Shown: in pieces, positions 35,981 to 55,314 of the stretch | Layout of the letters: every line of letters starts with the position of its first letter | Position numbering within the stretch: the stretch's first letter is position 1 | Origin: a virus | Taxonomy: Duplodnaviria > Heunggongvirae > Uroviricota > Caudoviricetes | Length of the DNA: 64,000 bases | Virus record (IMG/VR): IMGVR_UViG_2693429668_000006 | Direction: 5' to 3' (one strand) | Position numbers and translations under genes: made by a program | The notes under the pieces: generated by a model | The model's input: the letters and a program-made list of their open reading frames with translations, nothing else | Databases searched by the model: none | Told to the model about the DNA's origin: nothing

Positions 35981-38089
35981 TTACTTCAAAATGATACGAG
36001 ATAGTTCAGTAACTACAGATGAACCAAGACTATCAACACTAGTTACCAGGGCATGATTTGCGTAAAATCTCTCCGGTGCATCAGTCATGATGCCAATTGC
36101 CATCAAATCAATGTCAGTCTGCGTTTCAATTTGCTTCGTAACCGAACGCAAATGGGCGTCAAAACCTCTCCCAACAGCCCACGGCGCGCCATCACTCAGA
36201 ACAAGCATGATCTTCCTGTCCTCCAAGCGACCGGAAAATAACGATGCAAGGCTGGCTATGCTTTCACCATCCACGTTATTAAGAAGTGGGAATGTGTAGC
36301 CTACGCACCCCATACGTGAGCGAACTTCGCGAGAATTTGCTTTTTCATTCCAATTTTTGATGATAGGTAGCATTAAAGATTCAAAGCGAGAGAACTCATA
36401 TTTGATAGCCTTAAGTTCTCCTGCTGCCATATGACTGCCAAATGTAGTGAAGCCGGTGATAATGTTGGGAACATTTATTCGATCAAGTGCATCGGCGATG
36501 GTATATGCACTTGCAAGAGCTAGTTTTATCGTTTCGCCACTCATTGAACCCGATAAATCAATCACTTGTTGAACACAGGCGTTAACGGCTTTAGATTCTT
36601 CTTTTTTACGAAACACGCGATCATCATTCATTGTTAATCTGTAGATACTTGAACCATGAATGCGCCCCCGACGCTGGCCAGGTATAAACTGAACTCTGTT
36701 TCTGCTTGCTATTGCACGTTCCAGGTCTTTTGCCAGCGTCGACGAAACACCTGACGAAAGGTGCTTTTCAATATATTTGTCGAAGAGCTGGTTGCCTTCA
36801 GGAACGATGCGATAACGGCTGATTGGATATCCACCTAAATCAATATCGGAGAATGTTTTAATAAGCCGTTTGATATGGGCTTCTGCCTGATCAATCGAGC
36901 CGATGAAGTCGTATGAGCGATTGTATGGCCTGTATTCGCTTTTCGAGCTTTCTGTTAACTCGCTTTTAATCGTTTCGGATAGCGCATCTTCTGTCATGCC
37001 TCCGACTTCATCTTCCATGCTATCCAACTCCTCTAAAGCCTCTTCCAGACTCATTTTTGACGGAGTTGGAATGTCTGAAGAGCCGTCTTCTGTCGATTTT
37101 CTTTTTTCGTGGTCAGTGGTAAATGATTCTGACGCCGCGTTATCAGAAGCACCAGAATCTGATACCTCTTTATCATTTTCTGTATCATCGAATATTGTTT
37201 CTGATGATTCAGAATTATCTGAATCATCACTGTCGTTATTATCATGTTTGTACTTACTGTGTGATTCTGATTTGATAGATTTGTGATTATCTAACGCTGA
37301 GGGTGTCTCATGATCTTCGTTGTCTTCATTGTTTTCTCCAGAGGCATCCGTCTGGTCAGCGTCTGAAGGATCGGAAGTTTTTCCCGGAGCTGACTCCTTA
37401 CCTTTGCTTTCACTTTCAGTGTCTTTGAGGATCTTAGCTATGGTCGCAGCCACCTTTACACAATCCTCGGTGCAAGACATGTTACGCACGGCCACATCGA
37501 TACCATGTTCTTTTAATAATGAAATTGGTTTCTCAATGACAGGCCAATATTCATCCATGAAATCTACGAACGGTGCTTGGCCATCCCAGGCTCTTACAAC
37601 CGGACAGAGAAAGAAGTTTAGAAAAAGCGCGCGCTGATCTTTGCCACAATAAGCAATAGCCTCTGAAGCCTTTGTTTTAAAGACTTTTTCGATTATAAGG
37701 CGCTGAGTTGCCATCAGATTACGTCTTGTTCCGTTAAAGACCTGACCCATTTTTCGCTCGATGAACACGTCTTCTAAGGCATTCCATAGCGACCAGGAAG
37801 GAACGCGTCCTTTTTCTCTCATTTTGTTGGACACACGAATATCGGTAAACAAAATGTGAGCAACCTCATGATCGAGAAATCCGCGCACAGCATTCATCAA
37901 TGCCGGTGTTGCGTTATCCGGGATTGATGGGATGTTTACGAGAATTGGCTCTCCATCATCGTTATAGCGTACATAAGCGTCGTCCCCTCGTTCTGCAACA
38001 GGGATGTTTTTACCTGAAAGGAGAGCGACTACTCGTTTTACACTGTCACGGAAGTCCTGAACCTCTTTGATGGAACGTTTTTTAGACAT
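35981..38089 (-). CDS. von Willebrand factor A (VWA) domain protein (CobT-like partner of AAA+ ATPase)
   Basis: C-terminal MIDAS motif DLSGSMSG; long acidic Ser/Asp-rich linker. Confidence 0.6.
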   Translation of the reverse strand: MSKKRSIKEVQDFRDSVKRVVALLSGKNIPVAERGDDAYVRYNDDGEPILVNIPSIPDNATPALMNAVRGFLDHEVAHILFTDIRVSNKMREKGRVPSWSLWNALEDVFIERKMGQVFNGTRRNLMATQRLIIEKVFKTKASEAIAYCGKDQRALFLNFFLCPVVRAWDGQAPFVDFMDEYWPVIEKPISLLKEHGIDVAVRNMSCTEDCVKVAATIAKILKDTESESKGKESAPGKTSDPSDADQTDASGENNEDNEDHETPSALDNHKSIKSESHSKYKHDNNDSDDSDNSESSETIFDDTENDKEVSDSGASDNAASESFTTDHEKRKSTEDGSSDIPTPSKMSLEEALEELDSMEDEVGGMTEDALSETIKSELTESSKSEYRPYNRSYDFIGSIDQAEAHIKRLIKTFSDIDLGGYPISRYRIVPEGNQLFDKYIEKHLSSGVSSTLAKDLERAIASRNRVQFIPGQRRGRIHGSSIYRLTMNDDRVFRKKEESKAVNACVQQVIDLSGSMSGETIKLALASAYTIADALDRINVPNIITGFTTFGSHMAAGELKAIKYEFSRFESLMLPIIKNWNEKANSREVRSRMGCVGYTFPLLNNVDGESIASLASLFSGRLEDRKIMLVLSDGAPWAVGRGFDAHLRSVTKQIETQTDIDLMAIGIMTDAPERFYANHALVTSVDSLGSSVVTELSRIILK

Positions 38090-38651: not shown

Positions 38652-39038
38652 ATGTCTGATAACAAGATTGAATTTATAGAAAGTCGCTACGCTGCTTTTA
38701 TCGCAGGGTTGATTGAATCCTCACCTATGAGCCAGGCCCAGATAGCCAAAACAATTGGGTATAAAAACGCCAACAACCTTTCTTTAATTAAAAGCGGCAA
38801 AATTCCTTTGCCTATCGATAAGGTTCGTCCGCTGGCGCTGGCACTGGGCATTGAGCCAAGTCGTCTTATGATGATGGTGCTGGAAGAACGCCAACCCGAA
38901 CTCGCAGCATTTTTATACAAAGAAGGCACTGCTCCTCTTAACGAGGACGAAAAACAGGTTCTTGCTGCATATAACGAGCGATTCGGTAAAGAGAAAGGCG
39001 CATCACAAAAGGTTGTTGAGGCCATAAAGTCTCTATGA
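38652..39038 (+). CDS. HTH DNA-binding regulator (XRE-like)
   Basis: helix-turn-helix segment SQAQIAKTIGYKNANNLSLIKSGK. Confidence 0.5.
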   Translation: MSDNKIEFIESRYAAFIAGLIESSPMSQAQIAKTIGYKNANNLSLIKSGKIPLPIDKVRPLALALGIEPSRLMMMVLEERQPELAAFLYKEGTAPLNEDEKQVLAAYNERFGKEKGASQKVVEAIKSL

Positions 39039-40136
39039 AAAATTTACACGAATAAGCTCTGTTGATAGACGATCTCCCTTAAATTTGTGGTCAATTTCGT
39101 CTAAATCCGGTTGCTCTACGATTGATGCGATGTACGTCGAGAAACTTTCTAAGGCGTCTCGCATCTCGTCCATATAATCGTGCCGGTCGTAGACCCGATC
39201 TATCCCCTCAAGACTGTGGTTCATGATTTTACGTGATACCTCCTGGCTTATGCCTAATGCTGGGAAGTAACTACGCGCAGTACGGCGCAAATCTCGGGGT
39301 GTAAATGGCTCAAGCTCCATCAGTTCTGGTCGTTCCAGAATACGACGTAATGCCTGGGCTATTGCCACTTTAGACATAGGAAGGTCTTTCCCGATTTTTT
39401 TATTCGAAGGCACGAGCCACTGGCTGTCTTTACCATATTCGAACAACTCTTCAATACAAGTGCGCATTAATGAGCTTAAAGGCAGAGAATGCTCACGGGC
39501 AGATTTGTTCCTCTTGCCTTGATTCCAAACCCCACGCTTAAGATTGAACTCACTTTTTTTAGCCCGCAGTACTTCGTCAGGTCGTCTTGCGGATACAAGA
39601 CATAGCCTGGCCGCCCATTTTGTACCAGCGCACACATTGAAGTAGTCCCATATATTCCAGAACACCCATACCTCTGCGTCGGTCAGCTTCCGCTCGCGAG
39701 GTGTGGGCTTTGCGCCACCGGCAACTTTGTTAAGTGACATATCGTTTAACGGTGACACGTCTATCATCCCCTGGAAGGCGCACCAGCTAAGGAACTGCTT
39801 CATCAGAGAGAAAACGCGGCGGCCCATAACAATTTTGCCATCCAGTATTAGTGGGTTGACCAGTTGGTTCACCATGAACCTATTAATGTCACTTACTTTT
39901 ACATCGGCAATGTGCGGCAAAACATGTATCAAAATACAATGAACAGCGATCTCTGGCCGACGTCTGGTTATCAGCAGAGATAAGCGAGTGAATAACATGA
40001 ATGCGTCCGAGAATCTCATGTCATTGCTGACCTGGGAGATCATAACGGCCTGCATTTGAGATGCTCTTTCGAGATACTCTATCGCCTCTTTTGAGGTGTT
40101 CTCCGCAGCGCGTGCTCTGTCAAAGCTATTTTTCAT
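39033..40136 (-). CDS. tyrosine recombinase / integrase family protein
   Basis: C-terminal catalytic region TPRDLRRTARSY (box II) and NHSLEGIDRVYDRH (His...Tyr); ARRPDEV box I-like. Confidence 0.65.
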   Translation of the reverse strand: MKNSFDRARAAENTSKEAIEYLERASQMQAVMISQVSNDMRFSDAFMLFTRLSLLITRRRPEIAVHCILIHVLPHIADVKVSDINRFMVNQLVNPLILDGKIVMGRRVFSLMKQFLSWCAFQGMIDVSPLNDMSLNKVAGGAKPTPRERKLTDAEVWVFWNIWDYFNVCAGTKWAARLCLVSARRPDEVLRAKKSEFNLKRGVWNQGKRNKSAREHSLPLSSLMRTCIEELFEYGKDSQWLVPSNKKIGKDLPMSKVAIAQALRRILERPELMELEPFTPRDLRRTARSYFPALGISQEVSRKIMNHSLEGIDRVYDRHDYMDEMRDALESFSTYIASIVEQPDLDEIDHKFKGDRLSTELIRVNFS

Positions 40137-40346
40137 ATGACAATCACCGAGTTACGCCGATGCACTGTATAAGTAAACAGTATATTAGGCATAGATTCTT
40201 ATAGGATCAAGAGTAAAAGTAACTCATTTTCAGCAATGATTCCATACATAGTAGGTATGGAATCATTTAGCCGTTGTTTTTTGAATTTTAAGGGAACCAA
40301 GCGTGAGTTTGGTGGGAACAAAAACGGCTCCTGTGAGCCGTTAAAA

Positions 40347-40592
40347 TTAGAGAGTGGTGACGTATGCAGCCAGTTCTGTGTATCCGCCAATCGGTTGGCC
40401 ATCGATCAGTACCTGGGGGATAGTCTCTACCGGTTTGCCAACAATTTCGCTAAGTTTTTCCTTATCGATACCGGCAGTGGTGATGTCGATGTACTCATAA
40501 TCACCATAGCCGTGTCCCTTTAGTTGTTTCGCCAGCTCGACCGCACGTTTGCAATATGAGCAGTTATCTCGTCCGTAGATAACGATAGTCAT
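40347..40592 (-). CDS. glutaredoxin-like protein (NrdC/NrdH-like)
   Basis: IYGRDNCSYC redox motif, thioredoxin-fold length, ...DGQPIGGY. Confidence 0.7.
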   Translation of the reverse strand: MTIVIYGRDNCSYCKRAVELAKQLKGHGYGDYEYIDITTAGIDKEKLSEIVGKPVETIPQVLIDGQPIGGYTELAAYVTTL

Positions 40593-40648
40593 GTTTACCT
40601 CATAATAATTATGTGTTACTTAACCAGAAAATAAATATTACTATAAAA

Positions 40649-40670
40649 GATAGGTAAGTAAAAACCTATT
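40649..40670 (-). promoter_or_regulatory. class-A palindromic motif GATAGGTAAGTAAAAACCTATT
   Basis: upstream of glutaredoxin gene. Confidence 0.45.
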
Positions 40671-40731
40671 TAATGTCTGCAATACATCGTAAACTTGCCT
40701 GTTAATCACAACTTAATTTAGTTAATATTTA

Positions 40732-42060
40732 ATGCAACTAACAATGGTAAGTACGAGAGCATACATGCCTGTTTTTATTTCTGTTGCAATTCTAATGTTT
40801 TCCATAATAATTTTGTTTTTAGGTTTACTACTTGAGCCATTTCAAGATTGGAAGGTTACAGACCAAATTGCTGTATTGAGTAGTTTTATAACGACAGCGG
40901 CTTTTTGTGCAACAGCGTGGAACGCCTATGAAGCAAGAAAAAGTGCAAAGGCAGCACTGGAGGCCGTTAGGATAACTACCGATTCATTGATTGAGATGAG
41001 AAAAAATTCTTTCAAAGAATGGTTTGACACTTTATTAAATCAGCATGATGAGTTGTACAATAATGTCATACCAATCATTGAACAGACAAAAAAACAATTT
41101 AATAAAAATGAAATGCATTCGTTTTTTTATCCATTGGTAAGAAAGCATGAGGTTATTCAGTACATAAAACATATTACCAATATATTAGTCTATGTAGATA
41201 ACCGATTTTACATAGATGGAAATTGTTTTGATGAAAAAATGGAATATATTATTCAATTGAGTGGAAAAATACCACCGCAAATGAAGTTGGTTATTGCAGT
41301 TTTTGGATTGGACATCGATTCTCGTGAACCGCTGGATTCAAAAAAACTGTATGCTTTATTAAATAAATATGATTTTTTCAAAGATGAAATATTCTTTGAT
41401 GATGCTTATTCAAGCATGCCTGAAGTAGAGCTATTTATAAAGGATAGATTTGATAAAATATTTAAAACCAAGATGTTAAAATACTTTTGGAACGTGATTA
41501 AGGAATATTATTCTCAAGTTGAAGTCAAAGAAATCTGGGTGGTTCGTCGTCCGCAAGTTGCTTCATCGGTATTAATGAACTACCAAACACCATTATCTGG
41601 TTTAATTGATGATTATTTTAAAAATTTGCCAAATGAGGTAAAGAGCATTTTTGATGAAGCACTAAAAAAAGCTAATGATAGTGTTACGTCTATTGATGAC
41701 TATATTCATCGTTTGATCGGTTGCAGAGTCGCGTCGATTTCAGAGCATGTCCATTTCGAAAGTGAAATACTGAGTAGTGAAAAGGATGTGAAGGATATGA
41801 TTAAAAATTACATAGAGCAAAGAAAAACTGGAAAAAATGCGGTAAATCTTGGGCAGTTATATTTCTCGAGTGAGTCAGATGTAATTACAGGTGATCAGTT
41901 GAGTGATGCGATCGATGAATATGAGAAAAAGTTGGCACTTATGGCAATAAACGATAATGATGATAGTGATAACCTATTGTGCCATATCTATATTAAATCA
42001 TGTGAGATAGTTGATGAATATAAGCGTGAAACATTAAAATTGGGCGAGTACGCACAATAG
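40732..42060 (+). CDS. AT-rich membrane-anchored hypothetical protein (442 aa)
   Basis: N-terminal TM helix (and possible second), large K/E/D-rich soluble domain, markedly AT-rich codon usage, opposite strand to backbone. Confidence 0.55.
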   Translation: MQLTMVSTRAYMPVFISVAILMFSIIILFLGLLLEPFQDWKVTDQIAVLSSFITTAAFCATAWNAYEARKSAKAALEAVRITTDSLIEMRKNSFKEWFDTLLNQHDELYNNVIPIIEQTKKQFNKNEMHSFFYPLVRKHEVIQYIKHITNILVYVDNRFYIDGNCFDEKMEYIIQLSGKIPPQMKLVIAVFGLDIDSREPLDSKKLYALLNKYDFFKDEIFFDDAYSSMPEVELFIKDRFDKIFKTKMLKYFWNVIKEYYSQVEVKEIWVVRRPQVASSVLMNYQTPLSGLIDDYFKNLPNEVKSIFDEALKKANDSVTSIDDYIHRLIGCRVASISEHVHFESEILSSEKDVKDMIKNYIEQRKTGKNAVNLGQLYFSSESDVITGDQLSDAIDEYEKKLALMAINDNDDSDNLLCHIYIKSCEIVDEYKRETLKLGEYAQ

Positions 42061-42311
42061 GTTGTGCAGATTCGAAGCCTCTTTAAATTTTGCGCTGAAA
42101 ATTGTTATTTTACGGTAAGTAACGCTGTTTTCAGCGCATAAATGTCAGTGAATAATTTGATGCTTGCTGTAACGATGGTACGCTACGTAAAATCCGATAT
42201 TTATGAGACTGATTGCAGGTAAGGACTTACATAGCGCACAAAAATTGCTGATACCAGATGCAATATATGTTTAATGTCAAATTTTAGATAGGGGCGTATA
42301 CGCCCCTGTCA

Positions 42312-42866
42312 TTATTTTATTTTATCTTCTTCTAAACGAGAAAATTTAAATTGTTTATCGGTGATGGTGAGTAGTGTTACACCTTCCTTTTCGTGTAAAA
42401 GACCGGCACCGTTTGACACCATAATCAATCTATCCTTCCCTCGAAAGATTTCATAATATTTACCAGCTCCACAAGTTTTAGTTTCAATACAGTCCATGCC
42501 AGATACTGCTTCTCTGTTAAAAACACGATCTTTTGTAGCAACGGGTTTTCCGTACTCCTTTGTCAGCATTTCACTTATCTGGATGAATGTATACTTACCA
42601 ACATTACTGGTTAATGACATTTCGACTTTTCCGTCGATCAGGTTGCCATTCGTATGCGGTTCTTTTTCAGTCGGACTATTTTTATCTTGAAGAATAAACA
42701 CTTCAACATTTTGTGTTAGCTTCTTGAATTGGGCTTTATAATTTTGTTCAAGTTCACTTTTATCTTTGCCTATTAACGTTAATTCATCTATTTCAGATTC
42801 GTTACACCCTGTTAGTGTTAACGCAATTATTAGAGATGCGAAAATATTGAGATGGCACTTCTTCAT
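42312..42866 (-). CDS. lipoprotein (184 aa)
   Basis: signal peptide with lipobox LTGC; AT-rich. Confidence 0.55.
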   Translation of the reverse strand: MKKCHLNIFASLIIALTLTGCNESEIDELTLIGKDKSELEQNYKAQFKKLTQNVEVFILQDKNSPTEKEPHTNGNLIDGKVEMSLTSNVGKYTFIQISEMLTKEYGKPVATKDRVFNREAVSGMDCIETKTCGAGKYYEIFRGKDRLIMVSNGAGLLHEKEGVTLLTITDKQFKFSRLEEDKIK

Positions 42867-42982
42867 TAATTTGTCTCCATGTTTAACTGCTGCGATCTAA
42901 TCAGGAACATGAAGGCAGTCTAACGCTGCCTCGGATCAAAGCGATAAAACGATACGTGAATATAACTAAGTGTCAACAAATC

Positions 42983-43005
42983 AAAAAAGGGGCCGAAGCC
43001 CCTTT
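42983..43005 (-). terminator. rho-independent terminator downstream of tRNA cluster
   Basis: hairpin GGGGC-CGAA-GCCCC with A6 on plus strand (T6 on minus strand). Confidence 0.6.
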
Positions 43006-43159
43006 GAATTTTGCGCTGAAAAAAGTGTTGCTAGGATGTTAGCAAGCTATGGTTAAGAACGTCTGCCGTAATTGTCTATCACAGCGTTGAGCGGTCTGGT
43101 TTATGTTAGCGGAGTCTTAATCTGGTTGATTAAAAGGCCAAACCGCTCAACGCTGTGTC

Positions 43160-43246
43160 TGGCGGAGAGTAATGGAATCGAACCATCATCGTTTGCACAA
43201 TGGGACGGTTTTCAAGACCGCTTGAGCACCATGCTCCCTACTCTCC
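43160..43246 (-). tRNA. tRNA-Ser (anticodon UGA)
   Basis: 87-nt cloverleaf with encoded CCA, anticodon loop CUUGAAA, long variable arm, T-loop TTCGATT. Confidence 0.8.
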
Positions 43247-43540
43247 AATTGTGTTGTGTGCTCCGTTTCGTGGAGCTAACGGCGGGTGATCAGACCGCAC
43301 CAGGTTGGACGTATTTCAGCGTTATGCTGTTGCAAGAGAGCCAAATTGTGATGGCCGGTGCTGATCTCCGGCATTGCCTACGTTAGCGGCCTTCAGGCAG
43401 TTCATCCGCTTGCTTCTACGTCGCACATCAGCCTGTGCATTCACCACAATGTTGAGAACACTGGTTGTCACGCTGCAACGCAACATTATATTCATAAATT
43501 GGGATATGAACCCGTTACGCCAATGTTCTCAATATTATGT

Positions 43541-43616
43541 TGGTGCCGGTTAACGGACTTGAACCGCTGGCCATTTGCTTACAAAGCGACTGCTCTACCA
43601 ACTGAGCTAAACCGGC
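43541..43616 (-). tRNA. tRNA-Thr (anticodon UGU), two mismatches in anticodon stem
   Basis: 76 nt; acceptor/D/T arms canonical; loop TTTGTAA; possibly pseudo-tRNA. Confidence 0.6.
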
Positions 43617-43620
43617 AATT

Positions 43621-43707
43621 TGGTGGGGAGTGATGGAGTCGAACCACCCGAGTCGCAATGACAGTAGATTTACAGTCTACACCGCTACCTCTACGGACTA
43701 ACTCCCC
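43621..43707 (-). tRNA. tRNA-Tyr (anticodon GUA)
   Basis: 87 nt; anticodon arm GTAGA-CTGTAAA-TCTAC; long variable arm. Confidence 0.8.
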
Positions 43708-43712
43708 TAAAT

Positions 43713-43787
43713 TGGCGATGGTGGGTGGATTCGAACCACCGATCAGTTGGTTAACAGCCAACTGCTCTACCGCTGAGCTACACCATC
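43713..43787 (-). tRNA. tRNA-Asn (anticodon GUU)
   Basis: 75 nt; anticodon arm GTTGG-CTGTTAA-CCAAC; T-arm GGTGG-TTCGAAT-CCACC. Confidence 0.85.
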
Positions 43788-44545
43788 AATTCAGCACTGC
43801 CAGTATTTATTACTCAGCAGTGCCAATCGCGGCGGTGTTAGTTTTTGCCAATAAACGCACCGCTACTTGCACTTTTCGTTAGTGCCAGACGTTTTCGACT
43901 TCGCTCAATAGAAGGCAAAATCTTTAAGTAGATGATGTTTCTGAGGACAGCACCTACTTTGTAATTTACATAATGCGGTGTATGGAATCATTTGTTGTGA
44001 AAACAGGCACCAATGGCAACAGTGGTTAAACCTACACAACAATCCTGTCTTCACAACGTTGAGGCCACTACCCCGATTGAATGTTTGCCCAACATGTTAC
44101 ATATCAACGTTCGCCAGTATCTCTGTGAATAGAACCTTAGAATTGATAAAAATGTAATGGCCTCAACGTTGTGTGCTGGCTAACCATACCAGCCGGGCTA
44201 CGTCGCCGCTTTTTAACCCAGTATAAACGACATAATTGAACAAAATGACGTAACAGGATGGGCGGTCAGTGGCTAAGAATCCGGGAGTGATATGGAGTTG
44301 GAAATATACCGACCGCCCATTCTGTTACTTCATCGGAGAGGGCATGGGTGGTGCCGTATCATGCCCTCTCCTGCGTTCTGCAATCACACTCGCTCAGTGT
44401 GTCCCATTTCGGTAACGAGGCTGGAAACTGACCTCGCTGGTGTTTGGCTTATTAGGCTACTGCCAGATAGACTTCTTCGTTTGCACTTGTATTTAAGTTC
44501 AAACAGTCGCGTCTCAACGAAAACAAAGCCATCTTATACATAAAA

Positions 44546-44567
44546 GATAAGTAAGTAAATACTTATC
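44546..44567 (-). promoter_or_regulatory. class-A palindromic motif GATAAGTAAGTAAATACTTATC
   Basis: upstream (minus-strand sense) of the structured noncoding region and tRNA cluster. Confidence 0.4.
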
Positions 44568-44576
44568 GTGATGTTT

Positions 44577-44867
44577 TTATTCGGTTGTGACTTTTTTGAT
44601 CATGGCCACTCTACGATCAGGTGTTCTTGTGATGGTTGCAGTGAATCGTTTCGCTTGGATAGTAATGGTTTCGTTCTCCTTAAGTTGCCCGTAGCGAGTT
44701 TCCACCAGGGTGCCAAGACGCCACAGGCAATCATCGATACGTTTATGACTGGCAAATTTAATCAGCAGCAGTTTTACGACTAACTGACCTACGTAAAAGG
44801 CGAATCCGACTCCAGTCGCGATGAAATAGTGTACCAACCACCAGTCCCAAGAAGTTAAATTGCTCAT
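44577..44867 (-). CDS. membrane protein (96 aa)
   Basis: N-terminal hydrophobic helices. Confidence 0.4.
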   Translation of the reverse strand: MSNLTSWDWWLVHYFIATGVGFAFYVGQLVVKLLLIKFASHKRIDDCLWRLGTLVETRYGQLKENETITIQAKRFTATITRTPDRRVAMIKKVTTE

Positions 44868-45012
44868 TTTCTCACCTTTGTTTCATGAATTACCCGATAC
44901 ACACGCTTTCCGATGCACAGTGTTTTGGTTTTAAGTTCCTGCTTAATTAAGTCACGACAGATGCCGAAGCCGATAAGGAAACCAGCCATAAAAGCTAATG
45001 AGATGTATGGAA

Positions 45013-45228
45013 TCATTCTAACGCTCCTGATTCTACTAATTGCTGTAGCAATACTTTCCCTTTATCAGTTAACTGGTAGTTGGCCGAGCACCACGTTTCA
45101 GAAACGTTTGCAACCAACCCTAACCGCTCTAACTTAGCCCGCGTTTTAGGCTTCCAGTACTCAGGGAACTCCGGCCACTTACTGATTTCATGAAGCGTTT
45201 CCTTCTCCCGCTTACTTAATACGATCAT
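45013..45228 (-). CDS. hypothetical protein (71 aa)
   Basis: ORF track. Confidence 0.4.
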   Translation of the reverse strand: MIVLSKREKETLHEISKWPEFPEYWKPKTRAKLERLGLVANVSETWCSANYQLTDKGKVLLQQLVESGALE

Positions 45229-45387: not shown

Positions 45388-46710
45388 TCATTCTTTATCT
45401 CCGATTCGATCTTCTGTATCGCGTAAGCAACGCGGCCATTTCAGTCGTGGGTGGCGTAAGCTGCCGTCCGGTGTTTTCTCGTGACAATGAACCTCAACAA
45501 TACGACCACGGTACTTCTCTTTGTTGTTCCAGATCTCGTCCAGATATTTATGCTTAATGCCGCTCGCACGAACAATCACACCGTTTTCAAGGCGAATAAC
45601 AATTTTTCCAAGCGTGTTGGCAAAACCAGAGTCCGGGTCGCCCGACTCAAAGTCGATAATTTCACCATCTTCTGAATCTTCGTCTTTTAACTTCCACCAG
45701 CTGCGGGTACGTTTAAACTCGTAAACAGAGTTCGGATCTTTGCCCATCTCCCCTTCTTCGTTATCGTCAAGGCGTTTCATGAAGCGTTCGATGAAGTCTT
45801 CGTGGCTATGGATGATATAGAACGGATGCAGGTGAATGTCTTGTGTGTAGCCTTCACTGCGATCGTTTTTGAACAACGCCACGAGAATAGCCAGGCGCTC
45901 TTTCAGCTTCATACCTGTCTTTGCATACTCTTTGGATTTAGCCTGTGCCCGCCATTCCGGTAGGAAGAAGTCGAAAACATGATAAATAGCGCCAATTGCC
46001 TGCACGTTCTTTTTGCGCAATGCAGATACGGACTGGTTAAATGAACCGGCTGTTCCTTCACCATCGAAGAAGATGTGTTTGTGGCCTGAAAGTTTGCCTA
46101 ATTCGAGCATTGCTGGCTTTAGGTGATCGAGAGACGTGATTGGATTACCAGTACGAGAAAGGAAGTTAACCTCTTCCTCGTCAACAATAACCTCGCAAAT
46201 TACTCGCAAACCATCGAGCTTAAGACTGCCAATCATCGGCCATTTTGCTTTAGGGTTTGGCTTGAAGGGGTATTTGTCGCCTTTTTCTTTATACGGTGAC
46301 GCCAGCTGCACCTCGAATTTCGGAATGGGATTTTCAAAAACCTTGTTGCATAGGCTAATCCCAACACCCGCTTTCGGGTCTTTTAAGAGGAAACGACGGA
46401 ACACGTCCTGCCCATCGGCGCACATTGACGCCACGATAGACTCAACAGCAGCTATTGCTGCGTTCCCCGTCAGCTCGCGAGAGGCCAGCTTATTCAGTAC
46501 ATCAATGGCTTTTTCGTCACTTGGGACGGACTCACTAAGCGGCTCTGCCACTTTGTATTTCTTTACCCCAAAACGGATGAAAGGGTTGAGCATCAATGAA
46601 ACCATGCTTTGTTCAAAGTCATCCATGTTGGCCAATGCCTCTTTTTTTGCATTGGTTCCCATAGCTTTCATTTCGTCCAGCTTATGCTTAAGTGCGATCA
46701 ACTTTTTCAT
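45388..46710 (-). CDS. ATP-dependent DNA ligase
   Basis: adenylation motif I KLDGLR; 440 aa. Confidence 0.8.
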   Translation of the reverse strand: MKKLIALKHKLDEMKAMGTNAKKEALANMDDFEQSMVSLMLNPFIRFGVKKYKVAEPLSESVPSDEKAIDVLNKLASRELTGNAAIAAVESIVASMCADGQDVFRRFLLKDPKAGVGISLCNKVFENPIPKFEVQLASPYKEKGDKYPFKPNPKAKWPMIGSLKLDGLRVICEVIVDEEEVNFLSRTGNPITSLDHLKPAMLELGKLSGHKHIFFDGEGTAGSFNQSVSALRKKNVQAIGAIYHVFDFFLPEWRAQAKSKEYAKTGMKLKERLAILVALFKNDRSEGYTQDIHLHPFYIIHSHEDFIERFMKRLDDNEEGEMGKDPNSVYEFKRTRSWWKLKDEDSEDGEIIDFESGDPDSGFANTLGKIVIRLENGVIVRASGIKHKYLDEIWNNKEKYRGRIVEVHCHEKTPDGSLRHPRLKWPRCLRDTEDRIGDKE

Positions 46711-53607: not shown

Positions 53608-55314
53608 TTAATGATTGAGTATTTTATTAACACGCAGCTTATTAAGTGTTGATTTTGAAGCAACTTCCTCCAAAGCTTCTATTGCTTTATCAGTGATGCT
53701 CTTCTGTTCGTCTGTCGGGTGTTGCATACCCTTGAACTTGAGCATAGTCTCTTCTACTAAATTCAAAGCATCCTGATCACAGGATAATATCCAGTTTACG
53801 TAATCATCTTTAGAAAAACTGTTAAGAATATTCACATCACTATGGTTAAATCTTCCACCAGCTATTTTTTTTATAATTTTATCTAAGTTATAGTCATCTG
53901 GATTTCTATCTTTCAATTTTTTTTCAATTCTGAAACCTAATTCTTCATTTCCGAAGATCTCTACTCGCAAAGAATTAAATGTAGCATACGCATTGTCTTT
54001 ATTAACAAAAGCATCTGCATATGCCTCTATAATATTATTACAATCTCTATCCAATTTGATTAGGACATTTATTAAACCTACGAACTGTCCAATTGGTATA
54101 CGCAACAGACTATCGTTAATTACGCGCTCAATTTGAAAAATAAACTCTGATTCATTATCTTTAAAAGAGTTTCTAAAAACATCCCAAATTTTATAAACCT
54201 CACATAAAACCCTATTATCTCTATATTGTTCATTTTTTTCTTTTATTATATTTAGAATATTGCTTTCAGAAGACACATAACCGTTCTTAAGGTAAAAATC
54301 TATATCATCATCGAAAGCACTTTCTGCTCGTTCATAAATAATATCAAGGCTATTAACAAATGAATATACAGAGTTAACTTCTTCCTTTTCATCTTTATCA
54401 TCTAACATATAGTCGAATGCATGTATATTTTTGATTGACTCCTTAAATGAAGCATAATCAACGCTAGGAACACCAAAATAGTAAACCACTGAAAATAAGA
54501 CCAATCTATTAATAAAACTTTCTCTAACCTTATCCTCTGCTAACTTTAGCACATCTCTAAATATAACTAGAGATGATTTTATTTTATTTAATATTCTAAT
54601 GTTTTTGATGTTTAAATCATTTGCTAGGTTTTTTAACAAAAGAAAATCAGGGTCAGTCTCATAAAAAACTTTTCTTAAGTTTTTCTCAGGCGTGGGATCG
54701 TATTTTATTTCCACATCAATTATTTTTTCTCTATACTCTAAAAACTGTTGTTGTGCAGTTTCTTCATGTAAGTTATCTTCATTTAATATTAGAACAACCT
54801 TGCAATTTTTTCTTCTTGCCAACTCATCAATTACCCCCATAATCTCTTTAATTTCTAGCGCACTACCTTTTCGTTCAATATCATCAATGCAAACCAAATA
54901 ATTATTAACAAATTTATACTCAAGAGATGACAGCAGATTATCAGTTTTGAACCCAAAAAAATCGTTCTTTCCAAAATGTATTAAAAATTTTGACAAGGAG
55001 TTGTATTTCAACCATCCCCAAAACCCATTTCTATAACGAATCATAGTTCGATCCGTTTCAGATAAAATCAGTTCTTTATATTTCTTTTCATTAATTGGTG
55101 TGGCACAATGATAAAGAGCTTTTTTAATGTCTCCAATAGAATTTATTCCAAACAAAGAAACATATGAATATGCATTAAAATCTAATTTTTTAGAATGTTT
55201 AGTATAAAAGCTATTCCAATAATGCGTTTTACCTACTCCCCAATTTCCTTTTATGACAGCAACCCGATGATCTGAGTCCAAAAAATTTTTTAAAAATACT
55301 TCTATCGATTCCAT
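53608..55314 (-). CDS. KAP-family-like P-loop NTPase (568 aa), AT-rich accessory gene
   Basis: Walker A GNWGVGKT (GxWGxGK[ST]), Walker B LVCIDDIERK (hhhhDD[LI][DE]R); strongly AT-rich. Confidence 0.55.
   Translation of the reverse strand: MESIEVFLKNFLDSDHRVAVIKGNWGVGKTHYWNSFYTKHSKKLDFNAYSYVSLFGINSIGDIKKALYHCATPINEKKYKELILSETDRTMIRYRNGFWGWLKYNSLSKFLIHFGKNDFFGFKTDNLLSSLEYKFVNNYLVCIDDIERKGSALEIKEIMGVIDELARRKNCKVVLILNEDNLHEETAQQQFLEYREKIIDVEIKYDPTPEKNLRKVFYETDPDFLLLKNLANDLNIKNIRILNKIKSSLVIFRDVLKLAEDKVRESFINRLVLFSVVYYFGVPSVDYASFKESIKNIHAFDYMLDDKDEKEEVNSVYSFVNSLDIIYERAESAFDDDIDFYLKNGYVSSESNILNIIKEKNEQYRDNRVLCEVYKIWDVFRNSFKDNESEFIFQIERVINDSLLRIPIGQFVGLINVLIKLDRDCNNIIEAYADAFVNKDNAYATFNSLRVEIFGNEELGFRIEKKLKDRNPDDYNLDKIIKKIAGGRFNHSDVNILNSFSKDDYVNWILSCDQDALNLVEETMLKFKGMQHPTDEQKSITDKAIEALEEVASKSTLNKLRVNKILNH

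Follow-up and report, generated by a model that had tools for sequence, protein, structure and literature searches.

An AbiC/AbiP-like gene and an orphan lipoprotein gene in a variable cargo slot of an SSU5-like phage-plasmid

AbiC and AbiP count among the earliest abortive-infection genes to become known, and how they work is still not understood (PMC13064643). The proteins of this group have N-terminal membrane helices (two in AbiC), an all-alpha extra-membrane region and no recognisable enzymatic fold (PMC13064643). The group (PF16872) comprises single-gene systems borne by mobile elements. Here we describe a gene resembling this group in the IMG/VR virus record IMGVR_UViG_2693429668_000006. 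The analysed stretch of 64,000 nucleotides, further referred to as the window, is an SSU5/pHCM2-like phage-plasmid. Its plus strand contains a gene of an AbiC/AbiP-like protein with two transmembrane (TM) helices (40765–42060), which converges with the minus-strand gene of an orphan lipoprotein (42312–42866). A preliminary description of the window, made from the sequence alone, had noticed both genes and their orientation, and regarded them as an acquired exclusion or defence cassette bracketed by a 16-bp direct repeat.

We consider a different reading reasonably probable. The two genes would be independent acquisitions, transcribed separately and residing in one cargo slot of an SSU5-like backbone, and the repeat would be a scar of recombination. 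By analogy with AbiC and AbiP, the larger gene would act against phages; the mechanism proposed for it below is of the same conditional kind.

AbiC/AbiP-like membrane protein

The single-sequence search for relatives of the AbiC-like protein returned only 10 clusters. The profile search yielded 91 clusters, almost all of them on 105–112 kb contigs, from Escherichia, Klebsiella, Enterobacter, Salmonella, Citrobacter, Cronobacter and Raoultella; the weakest match carries the putAbiC domain (PF16872). The exhaustive search with the family profile among 1.84 billion representatives found 87 proteins. Scanning of full-length representatives, the window protein included, detected PF16872 in 51 of 60, and the PADLOC AbiC and AbiP models in 6 and 4, respectively. 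By BLASTP, the window protein matches P0107, a carrier of PF16872, with E 4e-10 across the PF16872 region of the latter. The hhalign comparison of the window family with the PF16872-bearing set has a probability of 100% (E 9.7e-57, 406 columns). Taken together, the profile search, BLASTP and hhalign therefore place the AbiC-like protein in the AbiC/AbiP group as a divergent member; judging by these alignments, its family is a fast-diverging, full-length homologue of putAbiC proteins. The preliminary description had likened the protein to abortive-infection effectors, and the profile homology bears out the family membership; the anti-phage role itself we infer by analogy.

Structural comparison added no further relatives. 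The PDB sequence-profile search with the family was empty, and fold searches with the AlphaFold2 (AF2) model of the window protein (predicted local distance difference test, pLDDT, 83.5; predicted template modelling score 0.70) matched no solved fold. In PHROGs the protein belongs to phrog_18168, together with the 410-aa protein of CP099286. Matches to a DUF1796 peptidase (Pfam, E 0.071) and to a tape-measure PHROG (E 3e-4) were rejected as below threshold or compositional. The literature search for PF16872 found no paper; the mentions of "AbiC" in PMC13590631 concern the Abi_C/AbiJ HEPN domain, a separate family.

The protein had been given a length of 442 aa. The open reading frame (ORF) of this length, 40732–42060, exists and is the longest one, but it probably starts too early. 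All homologues begin at the equivalent of its M12 (MP[IVF]L...), the RefSeq annotation in the identical plasmid has 431 aa, and the GAGAG Shine-Dalgarno sequence is located 5 nt ahead of the ATG at 40765, with none ahead of 40732. The gene is therefore most likely 40765–42060, 431 aa. The region upstream of it on the same strand (40593–40764) is unique to the window lineage; what precedes the other AbiC-like alleles is not homologous to it.

The claim of N-terminal TM helices followed by a large soluble domain was confirmed: both hydropathy and the AF2 model give two helices and a helical extra-membrane domain, as in AbiC and AbiP. Helix 1 (residues 2–22) is strongly hydrophobic, and helix 2 (~32–55), rich in Ala, Thr and Ser, runs on in the model into a very long helix. 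Conservation within the family is highest in TM2 and the next helix (residues 41–80), TM2 being nearly invariant and rich in small residues; T43, A46, T50, W52 and E56 (431-aa numbering) are among the invariant positions. It is still high through the putAbiC core to residue ~211, and the C-terminal half is far more variable than the N-terminal one. In one subgroup similarity ends at residue 211, which implies exchange of the C-terminal module. The protein is Lys/Arg-rich after TM2 and has an acidic inter-helix loop, and therefore its bulk is predicted to be cytoplasmic. With the length of AbiC being about 344 aa, the window protein is longer (431 aa); it also differs in being Gram-negative and phage-plasmid-borne, in the hypervariability of its C-terminal half, and in having diverged too far for the Pfam, PADLOC and NCBIfam models.

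The gene apparently needs no partner. It is alone in the slot in L005, L006, L009, L032–35 and L041–42, and the intergenic space between it and the lipoprotein gene in the window contains no credible small partner ORF. Its alleles form a series with 30–56% identity, in which the N-terminal half is conserved and the C-terminal half swapped; the alleles of pM-64-1161 (55%) and CP099286 (31%) are examples. One distant relative, P0107, is carried by an integrative conjugative element (ICE) as cargo, which fits a role in conflicts between mobile elements.

These features suggest the following scheme. The protein would have a cytoplasmic N-terminus, TM1, a short periplasmic loop, TM2 and a long cytoplasmic helix, followed by the putAbiC core (~37–211) and then by a C-terminal half that diverges fast and is sometimes exchanged. 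With its gene expressed from the resident plasmid prophage, the protein might sense a component of an infecting heterologous phage with its variable cytoplasmic half, upon which the conserved membrane-proximal module would execute a block of the abortive-infection type. It could consist in damage to the membrane, or in the disturbance of late phage gene expression that has been reported for AbiC and AbiP. Such a layout, an effector or anchor joined to a variable sensor, may be likened to many single-protein abortive-infection systems.

The protein might instead serve the phage-plasmid itself, in superinfection exclusion or injection block directed at related phage-plasmids, as a lysis-timing or holin-like factor, or as an addiction toxin. 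It is a membrane protein of a temperate element, its family is concentrated on ~105–112 kb contigs resembling SSU5-like phage-plasmids, and the fast divergence of its alleles would also be in keeping with competition among related elements. However, the gene is dispensable, since Cyrano, pHCM2 and every lipoprotein-type relative do without it; it is not part of the lysis or structural modules and has no conserved antitoxin-like partner ORF. Moreover, the homology to a family defined by abortive infection extends over the full length, and this family is also ICE-borne. For these reasons we consider a self-serving role unlikely.

Cargo slot and its border

The segment bounded by grxA and the tRNA-operon terminator (40593–42981, 2.39 kb, 33.6% GC) is a variable cargo slot. 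Similarity to the relatives breaks off at grxA and picks up again at ~42982. As claimed earlier, both genes are very AT-rich: the GC content is 32.6% in the AbiC-like gene and 35.0% in the lipoprotein gene, against 45.5% in the rest of the window, and the slot is the lowest-GC 2.4-kb stretch of the window.

Marker proteins were placed on 48 fetched loci by local tblastn; the SSU5-like context was found in 39. The slot contains the AbiC-like gene alone, on the plus strand and convergent with the backbone, in 15 loci. In another 15, including S. Typhi pHCM2, it contains the lipoprotein gene followed by a 262-aa gene and sometimes preceded by a 242-aa gene, all on the backbone strand. One locus has the lipoprotein gene without the 262-aa gene (C. 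freundii, L004), and one has neither gene (phage Cyrano). Both the AbiC-like and the lipoprotein gene are present in seven loci, all of the window lineage and with ~100% identical sequences. The same two-gene arrangement is seen in two further Logan contigs (L053 and L054). The exact cargo of the window was found in 5 of 5,426 complete E. coli genomes, on plasmids every time.

The 262-aa protein of the relatives matches PADLOC PDC-M68A (5.7e-25) and Cap4/SduA-type nuclease models, and the 242-aa protein has weak HEPN/Abi matches. In the lipoprotein-type relatives the nuclease-like gene occupies the same slot immediately downstream of the lipoprotein gene, whereas in the window it is absent and the AbiC-like gene is in its place on the opposite strand. 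The matches of the slot cargo to defence catalogues (PDC-M68A-like nuclease, weak HEPN/Abi, AbiC/P-like family) are candidate-level, and the alternative cargo looks like defence genes.

The AT-rich, variable cargo, absent or replaced in close relatives, supports the earlier proposal that the block was acquired and its foreign origin. Since the block is absent or replaced in close relatives, the two genes are not kept in synteny without the flanking repeats. Conserved flanks and mutually exclusive variable cargo are seen in the 48 loci; with this, and with cargo that looks defence-like, the slot behaves like the hotspots of other temperate elements.

The same survey largely refutes the view of the two genes as one two-component exclusion or defence cassette that arrived in a single insertion bracketed by the repeat. 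They are adjacent, both AT-rich and in the same variable slot, and at least two sublineages stably maintain the arrangement. However, the genes are separate in all other mapped loci, each occurring without the other in every other lineage of the 39 SSU5-like loci, and coexist only in a single near-clonal lineage and a sublineage of it. In PLSDB the AbiC-like gene occurs in 138 records, mostly phage-plasmid-sized enterobacterial plasmids, and the lipoprotein gene, by tblastn, in 108, including pHCM2 and IncY P1-like plasmids; three records carry this lineage's alleles of both, the overlap over all alleles not being computed. The P1-like plasmids have the lipoprotein without the AbiC-like gene. 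In addition, the genes run towards each other and share neither a terminator nor the promoter-like site, and only the lipoprotein gene is flanked by the repeats. We regard a single cassette as highly improbable.

The repeat reported in the preliminary description is real, with slightly different limits. The exact 16-mer AATTTTGCGCTGAAAA is located at 42086–42101 and 43007–43022 rather than at 42085–42101 and 43007–43024, and the full direct repeat covers 29 nt, 27 of them identical (42073–42101 and 42994–43022, plus strand; copies 921 bp apart). With up to two mismatches, AATTTTGCGCTGAAAA has three matches in the sequence against 0.19 expected, and none of 100 shuffles reached three. The text of that description placed the repeat around the lipoprotein gene, which is correct; its title extended the bracket to both genes, which is not.

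The two copies differ in their surroundings. Copy 2 belongs to the conserved border of the backbone, which includes the intrinsic terminator ending the tRNA operon (42986–43005, minus strand). The sequence AAAAAAGGGGCCGAAGCCCCTTTGAATTTTGCGCTGAAAAAAGTG... comprises this terminator and the 3' trailer of the minus-strand tRNA operon, and is kept in the aligned E. coli-type relatives with or without the lipoprotein; copy 2 itself is present in the lipoprotein-less L001, L005 and L006. Copy 1 begins 12 nt past the stop codon of the AbiC-like gene and consists of the right half of the terminator stem and AATTTTGCGCTGAAAA. In the loci with the AbiC-like gene alone, the intact border motif is 30–45 nt from the stop, and the spacing from the window stop (42060) to copy 1 is the same. 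Two border motifs occur only in the two-gene lineages, and the 262-aa gene is absent beside their lipoprotein gene. Copy 1 also takes part in a long hairpin of the 3' untranslated region (42088–42141, plus strand), the other part being an inverted partial copy of the border at 42118–42141; the RNA fold of 42055–42330 has z = −2.4.

This arrangement indicates that copy 1 is a border relic and the repeat a scar of homologous or illegitimate recombination. In the simplest history, a slot of the AbiC type would have recombined with one of the lipoprotein type, in or close to the border, and the event would have joined the two and duplicated 29 nt. The window lineage lacks the usual nuclease-like gene. 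The segment 42102–42320 is, like 40593–40764, unique to the window lineage, and the region upstream of the lipoprotein gene has 85% identity to the lipoprotein-type plasmids. Independent support comes from L053 and L054, in which a replacement tract ends at the border. These contigs differ from the window by one mismatch in 40300–42299, three more to 42599, none in 43000–43099 and six in 43100–43299, yet by 25–39% in 42600–42999, so that the 5' half of the lipoprotein gene and its promoter are replaced.

It had also been suggested that the repeats mark an insertion. They do mark a module junction; however, copy 2 is backbone sequence, present also in relatives that have no lipoprotein gene. 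In such a model the lipoprotein module would have been inserted by a mobile element or by the tyrosine recombinase encoded nearby, and the repeat would be the resulting target-site duplication or pair of att sites. The copies are direct, lie 921 bp apart around a single gene and are accompanied by an extra inverted partial copy, and the tyrosine recombinase gene is 2 kb away. A target-site duplication is unlikely because the repeat is long, imperfect (29 nt with two mismatches) and functional backbone sequence, including half of the conserved terminator stem found also in lipoprotein-less relatives, and because there is no transposase or recombinase between the copies, only the lipoprotein gene. 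In addition, the lipoprotein-type relatives have the lipoprotein gene beside a single border copy, and the tract in L053 begins inside the gene and ends at the border, which is typical of homologous recombination. The features of a transposon-type insertion with target-site duplication were not found here, and we judge an origin of this kind improbable; the recombination scar is preferred.

Orphan lipoprotein gene

The lipoprotein gene (42312–42866, minus strand) encodes 184 aa (MKK...LTLTGC) and belongs to phrog_15156. The lipobox LTG|C noted in the preliminary description is confirmed by comparison, LTLTG|C being invariant in 13 aligned homologues. The family consists of 16 clusters with 61–99% full-length identity and four shorter or partial ones, enterobacterial wherever the organism is named. 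Searches of Pfam, NCBIfam, PADLOC and PDB profiles found no relatives. The residue at position +2 governs the sorting of lipoproteins, and with Asn at this position the protein is predicted to be sorted to the outer membrane. The conserved Cys126 and Cys132 suggest a periplasmic disulfide.

The gene has a promoter-like site of its own at 42949–42976 on the minus strand (TTGACA-16-TATCGT, 10 of 12 matches, consensus match only). Between the convergent genes lies a GC-rich hairpin (42287–42310) with a 10-bp stem, seven GC pairs and a T-rich tail, terminator-like on the plus strand.

Outside the SSU5-like elements the lipoprotein gene is found in the IncY (P1-type) plasmids NZ_CP086663.1 and NZ_CP010146.1 (L049 and L050, 5001–5555), where the homologue has 67% identity; cre and ref are close by, and its neighbours are YaaC-family and nucleoside-deoxyribosyltransferase-like genes. 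The gene is thus an autonomous mobile gene common to two unrelated phage-plasmid families. In L004 and the IncY P1-like plasmids it occurs without the nuclease-like gene. Two other candidates for a relationship were rejected: Plp of P1, a lipoprotein encoded beside the P1 tRNA genes, is unrelated to the window lipoprotein, and the 213-aa protein encoded next to the lipoprotein in P1-like plasmids is not related to the 242-aa protein found beside it in those of the pHCM2 type. In the reading we favour, this autonomous gene would be expressed from its own promoter-like site and yield a mature lipoprotein of 163 aa in the outer membrane.

The preliminary description compared the lipoprotein to the receptor-masking proteins Llp of T5 and Cor. 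All are small phage-encoded lipoproteins with a classical lipobox, likely expressed in the lysogen. The analogy finds no support in sequence or profiles: there is no significant similarity, and the sole match to a Cor PHROG (E 0.041) covers residues 1–50, the signal peptide. The mature window protein is also 2–3 times larger. The genes of Llp and Cor are linked to receptor-binding or tail genes, whereas this gene is flanked by the tRNA operon and by grxA or the AbiC-like gene. SSU5 and P1 adsorb to the lipopolysaccharide core rather than to FhuA.

Bor and TraT are serum-resistance and surface-exclusion lipoproteins, and by comparison with them the window lipoprotein might be a host-fitness or virulence factor of the lysogen rather than a mask of a phage receptor. 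Its own promoter-like site, the 61–85% identity across hosts including S. Typhi pHCM2, its occurrence in two unrelated phage-plasmid families and the lack of adjacent tail or receptor-binding genes would agree with this. Against it stand the lack of similarity to Bor, TraT or any Pfam or NCBIfam family, the defence-like neighbours in most SSU5-like relatives, and the allelic replacement of the 5' half, which suggests conflict-driven diversification. We give this role a rather low probability. The leading guess is surface exclusion or another change of the envelope in the lysogen.

Several observations tell against the overall reading that we favour. Direct scanning of the window AbiC-like protein reached no Pfam, PADLOC or NCBIfam threshold and gave no PF16872 match at E ≤ 0.1. 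Its helix 2 is weakly hydrophobic, and the sigma-70 search upstream of the gene found no strong match. The mechanism is unknown even for lactococcal AbiC (PMC13064643), and we found no report tying the window subfamily, or any enterobacterial putAbiC protein, to phage resistance. The inverted partial border copy at 42118–42141 is not explained by a single simple crossover. The AF2 model of the lipoprotein (pLDDT 48.7, 13 similar sequences) is too poor for a fold search.

Element context and comparison with known hotspots

Segment 40600–43100 is identical to plasmid MF554642.1 (113 kb; 100% over the tested 2.5 kb) and has 99.9% identity to two E. coli plasmids. Escherichia phages Cyrano and CMS-2020a show 94–97% identity over ~65% of an 8-kb query around the slot. 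The order of the CobT-like (35981–38089), integrase, grxA, tRNA and ligase genes is that of SSU5/pHCM2-like phage-plasmids. A helix-turn-helix regulator (38652–39038) and the tyrosine recombinase (39033–40136) precede grxA. The glutaredoxin gene grxA (40347–40592, minus strand; Pfam Glutaredoxin, E 6.5e-11) forms the conserved left flank of the slot and is found in nearly all mapped relatives with 72–100% aa identity. The right-hand backbone consists of the tRNA cluster (Ser, Thr, Tyr, Asn; 43160–43787, minus strand), found by ARAGORN and Rfam, and an ATP-dependent ligase gene (45388–46710).

The tRNA cluster has its own peculiarities. Cyrano has three tRNA genes (L001 6959–7206) compared to four in the window; tRNA-Tyr (region 43621–43707) is missing from it, and therefore the cluster itself is variable. 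Long hairpins with arms of 20–26 nt and loops of 37–82 nt lie among the tRNA genes (43080–43157, 43442–43542, 44052–44173 and 44245–44333). Three of them have CAC..GTTGAG-type arms, and none has an Rfam match, the Rfam scan of 40000–45000 giving tRNAs only; they are possible processing signals, small RNAs or decayed tRNAs. The tRNA-Ser/tRNA-Thr spacer (43258–43556) has ~82% identity to P1, P7 and D6 DNA annotated as upl and plp, beside the tRNA-Thr and tRNA-Asn genes of P1, where the plp ORF overlaps tRNA-Thr. It is a conserved, perhaps non-coding, element common to unrelated phage-plasmid families.

Two short repeats are found around the slot. AATGATTCCATACAT, which looks like an operator, occurs three times (40235–40267, 43979–43992 and 45003–45017); one occurrence, located between the integrase gene and grxA, is an almost perfect palindrome. 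Both grxA and the tRNA cluster are preceded, in the minus-strand direction, by a copy of a 27-nt repeat with 89% identity (40643–40669 and 44540–44566, respectively). Its grxA copy contains TTTACT-16-TAATAT on the minus strand, and the repeat may be a shared promoter of grxA and the cluster.

Other accessory sites were seen as well. The interval from the integrase gene to grxA (40137–40346) is another small variable slot, empty in the window. In Cyrano (L001 5405–5959) it contains a 184-aa gene (phrog_28788), and in the Citrobacter, Klebsiella and Enterobacter relatives (L004 2118–3146) a YafO-type toxin gene with a partner gene. A second AT-rich island of the window (28.5% GC at 54–55 kb) carries a 568-aa KAP-family P-loop NTPase gene (53608–55314, minus strand; PF07693, E 6.6e-6), located between replication genes and a ParA-like gene. 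It matches PADLOC PDC-S49 (E 2e-21) and is probably a further defence-type cargo gene. Just past the tRNA region of the AbiC-type relative pM-64-1161 (L006 6648–8215), ISEcp1-blaCTX-M-64 is inserted. This agrees with a 2025 bioRxiv survey of SSU5 phage-plasmids, the consulted part of which reports the insertion of resistance transposons near their tRNA loci.

The grxA–tRNA-terminator slot illustrates the shuffling of accessory genes in phage-plasmids, and resistance genes are also inserted close to these tRNA loci. Defence finders miss the window protein, and therefore surveys of phage-plasmids may undercount defence content. The natural series of AbiC-like alleles on an E. coli-compatible element is ready material for specificity swaps.

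A bolder interpretation may be put forward tentatively. The slot would be an undescribed SSU5-like defence hotspot, whose commonest cargo is an uncatalogued enterobacterial branch of AbiC/AbiP that couples a phage-triggered effector, with its invariant small-residue TM2, to an exchangeable C-terminal sensor. The lipoprotein, common with P1-like phage-plasmids, would be a new envelope-level exclusion factor. If so, the locus would be the first genetically tractable E. coli model of AbiC/P action, a question open since 1992. We found no published description of the grxA–tRNA-terminator slot; the consulted part of the 2025 bioRxiv survey lists defence systems and names no hotspot or AbiC.

Compared to the defence hotspots of P2 and P4, as presented in the consulted part of PMC13586616, the slot has the same conserved flanks, the same mutually exclusive, AT-rich cargo of fast turnover that includes defence-like genes, and the same exchange of cargo by recombination at conserved borders. 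The differences are that it resides in an SSU5-like phage-plasmid, at a site from grxA to the tRNA terminator, and that most of its cargo is not recognised by defence catalogues. An AT-rich added gene in a phage hotspot is a pattern that specialists would expect, and the AbiC-like gene adds an uncatalogued member to a known family, in a type of hotspot that is already familiar.

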